Both the position numbers and the translations under genes were made by a program. From positions 33,262 to 97,261 of the forward strand of contig CAYYRC010000006.1 in NCBI GenBank assembly GCA_964474045.1: a stretch of 64,000 bases of DNA. The letters are read 5' to 3'. The stretch is from an uncultured Actinomycetes bacterium (lineage in GTDB: Bacteria; Actinomycetota; Actinomycetes; S36-B12; UBA10799). The notes below the pieces were generated by a model, which was not told where the DNA came from, did not search any database, and saw only the letters and a program-made list of their open reading frames with translations. Positions 58,730-63,887 of the stretch are shown here, piece after piece (the stretch's first letter is position 1; the number at the start of each line of letters is the position of its first letter).

Positions 58730-59419
58730 CTACCGGGCCGATGGCCCCGGCGGCGGCAGGTCCACCGGCTGAGCATCGGGGAACCACGACCGCGCGTAGC
58801 GAAGGCACTCGTGCAACAACTCGACCTCGGCTGCGCTGTAGATCGGGTGCAGCTGCGCGAAGTACGCGGGCACGTCCTCGCCGGCGAGCACCGTCACGCC
58901 GGGCGGGCGGCTCTTGATCCTCAGCCGGCCGTCGGGACCGACCAGGATGACGATCACCGGCAGCACCGTGACGTGCAGGCCGGAGGCGAACCGCAGCCGG
59001 TTGGTCGCCGTGTGCGCCTCTTCCTTGGCCTGGTGCGCGTAGTCCTTGGGATATCGACCGACCCAGATCGTGTCGGCTTTGACGTCCACCCGCTGCCCGG
59101 CGTGGTGCTTGGTGTTGATCGTGAAGACCCCCGGCGGACCGACGAGGACATGGTCGATGTCGCCGCCGTACTCGGTCACCTGGACGGAGTTCAGGACGCG
59201 CCAGGCAGTCCGGGTGAGCGGCTCCAGGCGGGCGGCGACGTCCTGCTCGCCAAGGATGCCCTTGGCGTAGGAGTTCGGTTGGGGCGGTTCGGCCGGGTCG
59301 GCAGGGTCGCCCCACTTCGCGAGCTGGCGCAGGCCCTGCCCGGCCTCGTGGGCGGCGAGGTCCTCGTCGGGATCTACCGGCTTGCGGTAGGGCCGCCACG
59401 TCCCCTTGCCTCGTGCCAT
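58730..59419 (-). CDS. NERD-domain protein (stand-alone)
   Basis: GGDIDHVLVGPPGVFTINTKHHAG core. Start taken at MARGKGTW (59419). Confidence 0.75.
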   Translation of the reverse strand: MARGKGTWRPYRKPVDPDEDLAAHEAGQGLRQLAKWGDPADPAEPPQPNSYAKGILGEQDVAARLEPLTRTAWRVLNSVQVTEYGGDIDHVLVGPPGVFTINTKHHAGQRVDVKADTIWVGRYPKDYAHQAKEEAHTATNRLRFASGLHVTVLPVIVILVGPDGRLRIKSRPPGVTVLAGEDVPAYFAQLHPIYSAAEVELLHECLRYARSWFPDAQPVDLPPPGPSAR

Positions 59420-59742
59420 TGGAACCCCTCCCCACGTGCCGGTGCCGCAGCCATCGGACTCGCGTCGGAGCCTGCCTGCGGTGGAACTCGGCTGAGGATC
59501 GTCACTTCGTGAGTCGGCCTGGGGGCGGTTGCGCCAATTGGGTGAGCGACTTCGATCGGACCGGGTCGCGTCCAACATCCACCTCGTCCAGATTCCAGCC
59601 GGCTACCGAGGCAGGCGGCGGCGCGAGGCTTGGCGCGGCACTCGTTGGACGCCCAGCGGCACTTGCCGGACGACCGTCGGAAGCACATCGTCAGGCGCCT
59701 GGGCAGGTGTGGACGACGCTGGGACGGGCACGAAGTTCGACG

Positions 59743-59754: not shown

Positions 59755-60048
59755 ATGACCACCGACTTCGTCGCCTACGACGATCTGCCGCGGGCCGACG
59801 AGGAGTCGCTCCGAGCTCGCGCTTCCGAGTTGATCGCACTTGCCGAGGGCTTGGGTTTGACGAACCTGCGATATGCGTCGAGCAACCGCATCGTCGTGAC
59901 GCTCACCGAGCACGTGGAGACCTTGGGGGAGTATCGCTTCGCCGAGAAGGCGAGCTACCTTCTGGGACTTCAGGTCCGCGTCTACGATGACGCGGTGCTG
60001 AGAAACCCGGGCGTCAGCCCGGACCTGCTGGCGGCAACGCCGCTGTAG
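59755..60048 (+). CDS. MNT-like (minimal nucleotidyltransferase-related) putative antitoxin lacking the GS..DxD catalytic signature
   Basis: 97 aa, 10 nt upstream of a DUF86 gene. The C-terminal LLGLQVRVYDDAVL resembles the MNT C-terminus. No GS..DxD motif was found. Confidence 0.5.
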   Translation: MTTDFVAYDDLPRADEESLRARASELIALAEGLGLTNLRYASSNRIVVTLTEHVETLGEYRFAEKASYLLGLQVRVYDDAVLRNPGVSPDLLAATPL

Positions 60049-60058
60049 GCCTGGGCGG

Positions 60059-60409
60059 ATGGATCGCGAGTACACGCGCCAGGAGTTGCTGGTCGAGGTC
60101 GTCGCCGCAGCCAGCAGGCTGCGCGAGCTCGGCGCCCGCGGGGACCTGCGGCGCTTCACCGATGACGAGGTCTTCCGCTTCGCACTGGCGTACCTGTGGT
60201 TGCGGCTTGCGGAACCCGCGTGTCAACTCGTCACGCGGCGCCTGGTCGGTGAGATGTCGATGGCCGTCTGGTCTGGCCTATGCCCCATCCGAAACGCCCT
60301 CGCGCACGAACGAGACGAGGACATCAACTACCAGCGGCTGTGGGTCAATGTGCCCGCCGCGGTCGAGGCGTCGCTTGGCGAGGCGGATCGGCTGCTGGCT
60401 TCGACCTGA
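60059..60409 (+). CDS. HEPN-domain protein (DUF86/HepT-like) putative toxin
   Basis: Rx4H motif in CPIRNALAHERDEDINYQRLW. 116 aa. Confidence 0.7.
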   Translation: MDREYTRQELLVEVVAAASRLRELGARGDLRRFTDDEVFRFALAYLWLRLAEPACQLVTRRLVGEMSMAVWSGLCPIRNALAHERDEDINYQRLWVNVPAAVEASLGEADRLLAST

Positions 60410-61794: not shown

Positions 61795-62047
61795 TCGTGC
61801 TGGGCCGGATTGGCTTCGGCCGTGCCTCGACTCCGCCCGACTCGTCATCCTCGCGTATCCCACCATCGCGAGAGGTGAGCCGCACTCCGCGGGTAGCTCG
61901 TACTCGGCGGAGGACCGCGCCAAACCCCCAACCCACAATTGGCCGGGTCGCGGCGCTGGGAAATTCGCGGCTGCGGCCGCAACCGGCTCAGGTTTCGGTA
62001 GATTCGCCCGTAGCCGCCTCGCACCTTTCACGGAGAGGATTCCGGCC

Positions 62048-63736
62048 TTGGCCCGCATGATTCCGCCGGTTGTGGATGGCGATGCCCCGCCTGGTGAGAG
62101 GCGGCTATACGAACTCCTGGCGACAGCTTCCGATACAGACGACTGGATTGCCATTCACGGGCTTCACCTTGCGGACCATCCCAACCAGCAGCGTGGCGAG
62201 ACCGACTTCGTCGTGATCGCCCCAGAGCGCGGGGTGCTGGTGATCGAGGTCAAATCGCATCGGTCGGTACGACGTGACAAACGAGGAATGTGGTTGCTCG
62301 GATCCCAGGCACCCACTGATCGCAGCCCGTTTGACCAGGCTGACGACGAGATGTTCGCGATCAAGACGTACCTTGCACAGAGGATGGGGCTCAGTACGAC
62401 CCACATCGAATCCTGCGTTTGGTTCACCCACGCGCCAGCCAGGCGTGAGTTCGTCGACGCGATCGAGTGGAGCCCGTGGCGCCTGCTCGATTCGGGGGAT
62501 CTGGTGGACGTGCCGGGGAGGATCGCGCACGTGCTTGCCGAGGGGCGTGAGCATCGGGCCAAGGCCGGACATTCCTGGCCTGCCGTGGTCGGCCCGGACA
62601 GGGCCACTGCGGAGAAGATCGTCTCGGTGCTGAAGCCTGCCATGCATGCTCAGCCCAGGCCCGCGGACCTCCGGCGGGAACGGGCCAACGAGCTCGCCCG
62701 ACTGCTTGAGGAGCAGGCGGAGGTCCTCGATGGTCTGTTGGAGAACGACCAGGTCCTGGTCACGGGTCCGGCCGGCTGTGGGAAGACCTTCCTGGCACTG
62801 GCCGCAGCGCGAAGGGAAGCTGAGAACGGCAAGCGTGGTCTGCTGGTCTGCTACAACCATGCGATTTGTGACTTCCTCGAGGAACAGGCTGATGGTATCT
62901 CCGGCCTCAGGGTGGCGACCCTCCATGAACTGATGCGCGAAGTTGCGGATGTCCCAGCGGGTGAGATCACGGATCGCGACTTCTGGGAGCAGGAGTTGCC
63001 CGCAGCGGCGTTGGAGGCGCTGCTGTATTCGGACGACGAACCGGTGGACTACCTGATAGTCGACGAGGCACAGGACATTTGCCGACCGAACTATCTCGAT
63101 GTACTCGACCTGGCGGTCAAGGGGGGACTTGCTCAGGGACGCTGCATGTTTTTTGGGGACCTCGATGACCAGGCTGTGTACATCGACTCGCCAAGGACAC
63201 ATCTGGAAGACGCCGCGGGTCGCGTTGCGAAGTACAAGCTGAAAGTCAACTGCCGGAACAATCCCGGTATCGCCCGCGCCGCTTCGGAATTCGGTGATGC
63301 CGTCAACCACTACTCGCGGTGTAGCCGCAGCGAAGGCGGCAGCACCCCGGCGGTCTTCGAGTACGCCACCATGCCGGAGCAACAGGAACTGCTCCTGAAC
63401 TCCGTCCAGGGTCTGCGCGAGGAGGGCTTTGACCTGCACGAGATTGTCGTTCTCAGCCGCTACCGCGAGCGCGCGGCCGCCGCGCAGGCGACGGATCCCT
63501 GGCTGAGGCAAGTATTGGTGGATTTCAGGCGTGGTGGCCAGATTCCCAAGGGACGCATCCGCTACTCGACGATACATTCATTCAAGGGTCTGGAAGCGCC
63601 CGCGATCATCCTGACGGACGTGACGGCGTCCGGGCGTGGTCCCTACTTCGATCTGCTGAACGTGGGCATCACCAGGGCTCGAGACCGCCTGGTGATTTTC
63701 GGGACGGCCGACGGCCTGCGGCAGCACCGAGGGTGA
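62048..63736 (+). CDS. NERD nuclease-like domain fused to SF1 (UvrD/PcrA-like) helicase/ATPase
   Basis: GETDFVVIAPERGVLVIEVKSH (D..ExK). Walker A TGPAGCGKT. YLIVDEAQDI. C-terminal STIHSFKGLEAPAIIL and NVGITRARDRLVIF. TTG start lies 9 nt after GGAGAGG. Confidence 0.8.
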   Translation: MARMIPPVVDGDAPPGERRLYELLATASDTDDWIAIHGLHLADHPNQQRGETDFVVIAPERGVLVIEVKSHRSVRRDKRGMWLLGSQAPTDRSPFDQADDEMFAIKTYLAQRMGLSTTHIESCVWFTHAPARREFVDAIEWSPWRLLDSGDLVDVPGRIAHVLAEGREHRAKAGHSWPAVVGPDRATAEKIVSVLKPAMHAQPRPADLRRERANELARLLEEQAEVLDGLLENDQVLVTGPAGCGKTFLALAAARREAENGKRGLLVCYNHAICDFLEEQADGISGLRVATLHELMREVADVPAGEITDRDFWEQELPAAALEALLYSDDEPVDYLIVDEAQDICRPNYLDVLDLAVKGGLAQGRCMFFGDLDDQAVYIDSPRTHLEDAAGRVAKYKLKVNCRNNPGIARAASEFGDAVNHYSRCSRSEGGSTPAVFEYATMPEQQELLLNSVQGLREEGFDLHEIVVLSRYRERAAAAQATDPWLRQVLVDFRRGGQIPKGRIRYSTIHSFKGLEAPAIILTDVTASGRGPYFDLLNVGITRARDRLVIFGTADGLRQHRG

Positions 63737-63887
63737 AGACCGCACATCGAAGTGCGCGAATGTAGTCGGTGGCGAACCAACCATCCGTAGGCTGCCCGGG
63801 TCAGGCGTAGATCCCCGGAATTGGTCTGATCCCGAGCCGCCAGACTGATGACGTGGCCGTTCTTGGCAGCCTGTGCGAAAGAGCCTC

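Follow-up and report, generated by a model that had tools for sequence, protein, structure and literature searches.

Can a nuclease fused to a helicase, encoded by one gene with no recognizable partner beside it, work as a defence system by itself? The question is raised by the NERD-SF1 helicase gene (a NERD nuclease domain joined to a superfamily 1 (SF1) helicase; coordinates in Table 1) lying in a 64,000-nucleotide stretch of contig CAYYRC010000006.1 from an uncultured actinobacterium; this stretch, at its full length, is called the window. The preliminary description of this DNA had proposed the gene as a single-gene defence candidate. That proposal stands in part: the family is linked to anti-phage systems (PADLOC profiles, DISARM-type operons), but its members are normally one of the genes of a five-gene system, and the solo form is the exception. 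As judged from sequence, the product of the window gene joins a nuclease and an SF1 motor, both intact, conserved and under selection, whose activities are predicted. We give about an even chance to the protein being an autonomous nuclease-helicase acting in defence. A wider proposal, put forward tentatively and with some doubt, is that the NERD-SF1 family marks a DISARM class not yet described, frequent in Actinomycetota and with further members in Chloroflexota, Planctomycetota, Deinococcota and Bacillota, in which the nuclease-helicase replaces DrmC; the window gene would then be an effector freed from DrmAB and the methyltransferase, and autonomous.

A predicted nuclease fused to an SF1 motor

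The NERD domain (amino acids (aa) 16-127) scored 51.5 bits against a Pfam cutoff of 22.1, and E17, D53, E67 and K69 were invariant across an alignment of 101 homologues, in agreement with the intact D..E-x-K motif reported in the preliminary description. In an AlphaFold2 (AF2) model built from the homologue alignment (mean predicted local distance difference test, pLDDT, 87.4), a helical linker connected an alpha-beta-beta-beta-alpha-beta PD-(D/E)xK core to two RecA-like domains. The four putative catalytic residues lay on the expected helix and strands: D53 was in strand 51-58 and E67/K69 in the adjacent strand 62-69, flanked by helices 15-26 and 94-113; the modelled nuclease core has the canonical PD-(D/E)xK topology. 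The linker helices were placed at residues 149-172, 185-195 and 205-222, with the pLDDT minimum at 190-220.

The helicase part was equally complete. AAA_19 and AAA_30 spanned aa 219-412 and UvrD_C_2 aa 506-550, all above the Pfam cutoffs, and the UvrD-like SF1 motifs Q, I, Ia, II, III, IV, V and VI were all present, in order; the Walker A, DEAQ and UvrD_C-like motifs announced from the sequence are therefore there. A script found every motif string that had been quoted (GETDFVV...VIEVKSH, GPAGCGKT, YLIVDEAQDI, STIHSFKGLEAP and NVGITRARDRLVIF). Residues invariant in the 101 homologues were Q223, G240/G243/G245-K246-T247, N270, D339-E340-x-Q342-D343, D371...Q375, N401-C-R-N404, K513-G514 and R543. 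The spelling of the motifs (GDxxQ, NxRN, TIHxFKGLE, VGxTRA) was UvrD/Rep-like, the inserts corresponding to UvrD domains 1B and 2B were short, and a 3'-5' polarity may be expected by analogy with other helicases carrying SF1A-type motifs. A profile search of sequences in the PDB gave HelD, UvrD, Rep and GajB as best matches, and Foldseek with the AF2 model returned SLFN11/14, Upf1-like helicases, Dna2 and UvrD. In an NCBIfam scan of the protein, no score came close to any curated cutoff.

These structural matches bear on the nature of the substrate. The protein could use its motor on RNA or on RNA-DNA hybrids and its NERD domain to cleave RNA, in the manner of Schlafen group III or ZwsA. Human SLFN11 and SLFN14 headed the Foldseek list (E 9e-18 over some 560 aligned columns), ahead of IGHMBP2, Upf1 and Sen1; the Pfam family SLFN-g3_helicase (PF09848) scored 23.8 bits, marginally below its cutoff of 24; and the NERD domain of ZwsA was shown to act as an RNA endonuclease (bioRxiv 10.64898/2026.04.06.716636). 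This is nevertheless improbable: the motifs are of UvrD/Rep type (GDxxQ, NxRx, TIHxxKGLE, VGxTRA), the profile search ranked DNA helicases first, the Foldseek TM-scores reached only about 0.48, and DNA is the substrate of the partners encoded in the relatives' operons, DrmAB and a C5 DNA methyltransferase (Bravo et al. 2022, PMC9142583).

DISARM-type operons of the family

The family comprised 883 clusters (50% identity) at E ≤ 1e-30 in a library of 1.84 billion proteins, with named members labelled "NERD domain-containing protein" or "nuclease-related domain-containing DEAD/DEAH box helicase". Only one library representative (P0007, 64%) exceeded 50% identity to the window protein. Eighty species-level genomic loci (numbered with L) were fetched, their flanking open reading frames (ORFs) were clustered, and the clusters were confirmed by tblastn with several representatives each. 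Counting the window, the census included 81 loci, of which 78 came from these eighty and two were metagenome contigs (L085 and L089).

At 59 of the 81 loci, a homologue 33-45% identical to the window protein stood within a conserved five-gene operon, in the order ~334-aa protein, ~506-aa DrmE_C-like protein, NERD-helicase, DrmA and DrmB (L053:7570-17040 and L018:7597-17090 are examples from L012-L084). The first protein had no family match. The second carried the DrmE_C domain PF24957 (31.6 bits vs. a cutoff of 27), DrmA was recognized by PADLOC at 1e-209, and DrmB by PADLOC at 1.5e-73 and by the Pfam domain MZB (MrfA Zn-binding/DUF1998). The reading frames overlapped by 4-13 nt according to the ORF coordinates of several inspected loci. 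A C5 cytosine methyltransferase was usually encoded a few kb from the operon, often with Vsr, and NaeI was present in 6 loci. The DISARM-type loci contained no DrmC of the PLD type, and no gene of any kind was conserved after DrmB. Operons of this composition were found in Actinomycetota, Chloroflexota, Planctomycetota, Deinococcota, Bacillota and Desulfobacterota.

What marks a system as DISARM is that DrmA and DrmB are encoded separately (bioRxiv 10.1101/2025.09.15.676423), and the C5 methyltransferase together with DrmE makes the operon class-2-like (bioRxiv 10.1101/2021.12.28.474362). A literature search, which did not extend to the primary DISARM paper, returned no paper on a NERD-SF1 helicase in DISARM, and the operon is provisionally regarded as undescribed. 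DrmC, the canonical DISARM nuclease, was dispensable in the systems tested (bioRxiv 10.1101/2021.12.28.474362). A widespread DrmC-less operon with a NERD-SF1 nuclease-helicase points to a candidate effector for the killing step of DISARM. Annotations of about 565 aa reading "NERD domain-containing" or "nuclease-related domain-containing DEAD/DEAH box helicase" should be read with this linkage in mind.

A protein of ~1,140 aa was encoded no more than a few kb from the operon in 10 loci (e.g. L013:2467-5883; also L020, L021, L029, L032, L037 and L084); by eye only, it looks like a relaxase-helicase of the TraA/MobF type, which suggests that some of these operons ride on conjugative elements.

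The partner-less lineage and its host chromosome

The window gene belongs to a different group. Ten loci formed a solo clade: the window, L085 (85% identical), L089 and L005-7 (64-65%), and L008-11 (56-57%). By tblastn, DrmA, DrmB, DrmE_C and the C5 methyltransferase were absent within ±10 kb of all ten, and homologues of the same four, searched with 6 representatives each, were absent from the 64 kb of the window. In a neighbour-joining tree with 100 bootstraps, rooted at its midpoint without an outgroup, the solo clade was supported at 100%, a Microbacteriaceae clade located beside a DarT-like gene also at 100%, and the two together at 77%; a non-actinobacterial DISARM-linked group branched off at 98%. 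The midpoint root placed the solo clade within the DISARM-linked diversity, suggesting that it derived from an operon gene, and the solo lineage may have lost its DISARM partners or never had them.

If the partners were encoded elsewhere in the genome, the window protein could still serve DrmA and DrmB (and a methyltransferase) in trans, as their unlinked nuclease-helicase effector. We consider this quite unlikely. In its favour, the great majority of the family shares an operon with DrmA and DrmB, all the motifs shared with the operon members are retained, and the gene is under purifying selection; the four partner genes are, however, missing from the window and from the surroundings of every solo locus, and the distinctness of the clade, together with only 33-45% identity to the operon members, looks like long independent evolution and not like a relocation of recent date.

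Selection on the solo genes was estimated from the ratio of non-synonymous to synonymous substitution rates (dN/dS), which was 0.08 between the window and L085 (dS about 1.1) and 0.08-0.23 across the clade (0.11-0.23 for the deeper pairs, in which dS is saturated), as expected for genes under purifying selection. A decaying orphan, that is, a left-over DISARM gene without current function, would account for the missing partners and for the low codon adaptation index (CAI, 0.44). It is most improbable and, on the sequence data, largely refuted: beside the low dN/dS, the catalytic residues are all invariant, a well-placed Shine-Dalgarno sequence is present, and the ORF is intact in every strain examined, with 6-8 amino acid differences sparing the putative nuclease residues, Walker A and DEAQD.

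The composition of the gene was strongly atypical. Its GC content was 0.632 and its GC content at third codon positions (GC3) 0.75, vs. 0.706±0.022 and 0.911±0.030 in 25 backbone ORFs (z = -5.4 for GC3, somewhat inflated because these ORFs were picked by a GC3 filter, though the direction is not in doubt); the backbone CAI was 0.71±0.07. No other credible gene of the window had an equally low GC3. The value of 0.632 is close to the locus GC of the solo-clade relatives (0.63-0.65) and unlike that of the host (0.708), which fits transfer from such a donor; the data are consistent with horizontal acquisition of the gene from a donor of about 63% GC. The lower GC content relative to the backbone, and its compatibility with horizontal acquisition, had both been anticipated in the preliminary description.

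The limits of the acquired segment were less clear. Nucleotide homology between the window and L085 was restricted to 62030-63734, i.e. the ribosome-binding site (RBS) and the ORF, so the boundaries of a cassette are not definable; there were no tRNAs around the gene and no convincing direct or inverted repeats flanking it. In L106, a more distant relative, the MFS gene was 85% identical in nucleotide sequence and aligned to the window only up to 61800; synteny broke ~6 nt past the MFS stop codon and was followed by unrelated DNA with no helicase, a hint, not a proof, that the left edge lies near 61800. After the MFS gene, L106:766-1161 carried a degraded copy of the 97/116-aa gene pair of the window (described below), with internal deletions. 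A clean empty site was not obtained: exact look-up of the MFS protein gave only occupied, syntenic contigs, and of the three short contigs with MFS relatives that turned up when metagenomes were scanned, only L106 was informative.

The neighbours of the solo genes varied by lineage (DUF1707, FUSC, amidase-LGFP, RNase_T, AdnAB-like, ResIII, a 644-aa protein), and a conserved partner was rejected, since the neighbours differ in each lineage; some of these settings are defence islands. In L085-88, the homologue was preceded by the conserved 644-aa protein, which had no Pfam or PADLOC match; downstream there were an IS21 insertion sequence (IstA/IstB) and a gene cluster for a protein with a weak likeness to Mrr (Pfam E 0.083, under any threshold), an ATPase of PD-Lambda-5_A-like type, a C5 methyltransferase and a protein with a Z1 domain (region L085:4679-13022; also L086 and L088). 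In L104, Fic, GmrSD_C and small helix-turn-helix genes stood upstream of the homologue, and Macro downstream.

AdnA/AdnB form a mycobacterial-type double-strand-break resection machine. In L010:5730-11374, the NERD-helicase was followed, with a 10-nt overlap, by AdnA/AdnB-like genes (PDDEXK_1; UvrD-helicase). The homologues of the Microbacteriaceae sister clade (L061-L063, L066, L067, L069, L072, L078 and L080) were located 0.1-3.5 kb downstream of a DarT-like ADP-ribosyltransferase gene (PF14487, 5e-16), which was accompanied by a conserved 314-aa protein; the latter was rejected as a DarG, as it had no macrodomain match. An Eco57I-type restriction-modification (R-M) fusion was encoded nearby in L080.

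With uvrA, uvrC, whiA, pgk, zwf and tkt among its genes, the window is chromosomal core DNA. One lineage (P0271) had a UvrC ~79% identical to that of the window and Nanopelagicales/Frankiales-type UvrC proteins were 67-69% identical; the host thus appears, from its sequences, to be an uncultured actinobacterium without close sequenced relatives. The identical NERD-helicase protein was found on 4 metagenome contigs, and 10 same-species metagenome contigs with the identical MFS protein had one common gene order (Table 1). The helicase ORF was intact in all ten, with 0-24 nucleotide and 0-8 amino acid differences; the amino acid changes spared the putative nuclease residues, Walker A and DEAQD, with one conservative change (F369L) in motif III. 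The gene is thus fixed and syntenic in the species; the presence/absence variation among close strains suggested as a check was not observed.

Should the protein act by itself, the UvrD-type motor would hydrolyse ATP, translocate on or unwind nucleic acid, and feed a strand to the N-terminal NERD PD-(D/E)xK nuclease, which would cut it. In the DISARM-type operons, where it is tightly linked to the DNA-sensing helicase complex DrmAB, the NERD-helicase would serve as effector nuclease in the place of DrmC. The window copy, which purifying selection maintains, would have been transferred horizontally into a high-GC actinobacterial chromosome, its donor having a GC content of about 63%, and the solo protein would most likely degrade invading or aberrant DNA (anti-phage or anti-plasmid) alone, in the fashion of Nhi. 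We infer the DNA substrate, the defence role and the existence of some mode of self/non-self discrimination from these relationships.

Several observations weigh against an autonomous defence role. The gene is fixed in the species and not variable between strains; directly beside it stand an MFS transporter gene and housekeeping genes, with no defence island, and housekeeping neighbours were also found in L005-7, L089 and L102. Across its 64 kb, the window shows neither a modification enzyme nor any other partner for self-protection, so the sparing of host DNA by a stand-alone nuclease is unexplained. The SLFN11/14 and Upf1-like structural matches and the NERD ribonuclease ZwsA leave room for an RNA substrate. 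Without an outgroup, the root, and with it the direction "derived from DISARM", is unproven, and the literature search found no published description of any family member.

Some of these points would suit a housekeeping DNA repair or recombination enzyme, a functional analogue of the end-processing Dna2, AddAB or AdnAB that was recruited by the lineage: the gene is fixed and syntenic, the window and the three loci or groups just named have housekeeping neighbours, the homologue of L010 stands directly upstream of AdnA/AdnB-like genes, and Dna2 and UvrD are among the Foldseek matches. Such a role is unlikely given the patchy distribution (very few clusters, with P0007 as the one library representative more than 50% identical at 50% clustering), a genomic location that differs in every lineage, and the foreign composition of the gene in the window; the closest homologue lies in an insertion sequence/R-M island and the rest of the family in defence operons. 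The defence role of an autonomous nuclease-helicase retains the even standing given to it above.

The start of the gene deserves attention. The N-termini of homologues correspond to M-A-R-M-I-P, which favours, by alignment, the TTG at 62048 over the ATG at 62057, the start picked by some gene callers. Public gene calls on identical DNA (L092-L096) used three starts for the helicase, giving 461, 480 and 559 aa; the 461- and 480-aa calls omit the NERD domain, and the fusion would be masked in automated annotation. These short calls in same-species contigs were rejected as N-terminal truncations or pseudogenes, as they are start choices on identical DNA. The flanking gaps of 253 and 151 bp given in the preliminary description agreed with the measured spacers (Table 1). 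No sigma-70 consensus promoter was found in the upstream spacer, and no intrinsic terminator in the downstream one, where the RNA fold was non-significant (z = -1.47). A perfect 15-nt inverted repeat (TCCGGCCTTGGCCCG / CGGGCCAAGGCCGGA) has one arm over the start codon (62041-62055) and the other 499 nt downstream, inside the helicase ORF (62555-62569); it is probably due to chance.

Table 1. Features of the NERD-SF1 helicase gene and its surroundings (window coordinates; position 1 is the first nucleotide of the window).
Feature	Position	Strand	Details	Basis
NERD-SF1 helicase gene	62048..63736	+	562 aa plus stop; TTG start	ORF list, Pfam and PADLOC matches
Shine-Dalgarno-like GGAGAGGA	62032-62039	+	8 nt before TTG start	read from sequence
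Upstream non-coding spacer	61795..62047	.	253 bp, between MFS gene and helicase ORF	
Downstream non-coding spacer	63737..63887	.	151 bp, GC 0.61; before convergent 160-aa gene on minus strand	
NERD PD-(D/E)xK nuclease domain	62093..62428	+	aa 16-127	PF08378, 1.7e-13
Putative catalytic residues	E17 62096-62098; D53 62204-62206; E67-V-K69 62246-62254	+		alignment
Helical linker	62429..62701	+	aa 128-218; invariant W141, D148, P197	alignments and AF2
Compact UvrD-type SF1 helicase core	62702..63712	+	aa 219-555	Pfam, invariant columns, PDB profile search
Helicase motif Q	Q223	+		invariant column
Helicase motif I	62765-62788	+	GPAGCGKT	coordinates script-checked
Helicase motif Ia	62843-62863	+	LVCYNHA	coordinates script-checked
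Helicase motif II	63062-63076	+	DEAQD	coordinates script-checked
Helicase motif III	63152-63172	+	FGDLDDQ	coordinates script-checked
Helicase motif IV	63248-63259	+	NCRN	coordinates script-checked
Helicase motif V	63563-63595	+	YSTIHSFKGLE	coordinates script-checked
Helicase motif VI	63659-63691	+	NVGITRARDRL	coordinates script-checked
Gene order, upstream part			ADH, Metallophos, AAA_33, NERD-only protein, 97 aa, 116 aa, MFS, NERD-helicase	
Gene order after NERD-helicase			160 aa (minus strand), Rv1486c_N (minus strand), ABC, SpoU, His_Phos	

Three further genes upstream of the helicase may be mentioned. A second, NERD-only protein (58730-59578, minus strand; Pfam 3.6e-15; 229 aa in metagenome annotations) is encoded 2.5 kb upstream and is only a distant relative of the NERD domain of the helicase (28% identity over 75 aa); it has I-N-T-K in place of the I-E-V-K of the helicase, the usual acidic residue being replaced. 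Two adjacent small genes on the plus strand (59755-60048 and 60059-60409) encode proteins of 97 and 116 aa without Pfam or PADLOC matches; the 116-aa protein contains RNALAH, which fits, by eye only, the Rx4H HEPN-like motif.

Comparison with known systems

A PADLOC scan, put forward as a check in the preliminary description, gave as its best match the reverse transcriptase (RT)-associated NERD-helicase (PDLC03813; 3.1e-31), with residues 1-555 aligned to positions 1-514 of a 519-position profile, and a match to the candidate model "NERD+UvrD" (5e-20). The RT-associated NERD-helicase of UG34 (DRT) is cluster 485 of Mestre et al. 2022 (PMC9226505), where its association with UG34 is bioinformatic only. 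It has the same layout as the window protein, with NERD at the N-terminus and the helicase at the C-terminus, but it is defined by co-location with the UG34 RT; no RT was adjacent to the window gene, and none was seen in the solo-clade loci.

Nhi of Staphylococcus acts as a single-gene defence, and degradation of phage DNA is its proposed mode of action (Bari et al. 2022, as cited in PMC10732053); single-protein nuclease-helicases such as Nhi are described in the same source as triggered by phage replication intermediates or single-stranded DNA-binding protein (PMC10732053). The window protein resembles Nhi in uniting a nuclease and an SF1-type helicase in one polypeptide. As homology, the "Nhi-like" label of the preliminary description does not hold: the PADLOC Nhi profile (PDLC02372) reached only 23.7 bits (E 4e-6) over residues 331-417, with no stretch passing on its own. 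The resemblance is architectural only, and the window protein is not a member of the Nhi family.

Schlafen group III proteins (SLFN11/SLFN14) and Dna2 likewise have a nuclease at the N-terminus and a compact SF1 helicase after it. These are eukaryotic, however; the Schlafen nuclease fold is unrelated to NERD, and Dna2 is arranged differently. Comparison with the AF2 model gave TM-scores of about 0.4-0.5 at 14-18% sequence identity, and the sub-cutoff score against PF09848 places the protein outside that family; the likeness is one of architectural analogy only.

GajB is a UvrD-type SF1 helicase used in defence, which the window protein matches partially: the best GajB match (6e-8) covered residues 335-476, and no GajA was adjacent. 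MkoA has an N-terminal NERD domain, matched by the NERD region of the window protein at 1e-12, at domain level only. TALON pairs the helicase YprA with a NERD nuclease (bioRxiv 10.1101/2025.09.15.676423). The partner genes GajA, MkoB, TPR-CSD and TBP were not present at the window locus.

The closest comparison is with DISARM itself, given as DrmA/DrmB/DrmC with DrmMII and DrmE (Ofir et al. 2018, as summarized in bioRxiv 10.1101/2021.12.28.474362). The operons of the relatives share with it separate DrmA and DrmB, a DrmE_C-domain protein and a C5 methyltransferase; canonical DISARM has the PLD nuclease DrmC, whereas these operons carry the NERD-SF1 helicase instead. The operon-type homologues have the length (~560-570 aa), the NERD plus compact SF1 layout and all the motifs of the window protein, with 33-45% identity over the full length, and are wedged between the DrmE_C-like gene and DrmA-DrmB with overlapping frames. 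The window gene, unlike them, has its own RBS and spacers and belongs to a separate clade (100% bootstrap); neither adjacent DrmA/DrmB nor a methyltransferase within the 64 kb was found.

The partner-less clade, the window gene included, offers a minimal one-gene construct for the action of the effector itself. If it is a freed DISARM effector, it would be a natural experiment on which part of DISARM kills, and on triggering without a sensor; the label "defence system" should be given to solo copies only with experimental evidence. Judged from sequence comparison, the kinds involved are known ones, single-protein nuclease-helicase candidates and DISARM accessories, while the family-level link to DISARM and the partner-less offshoot would be new.

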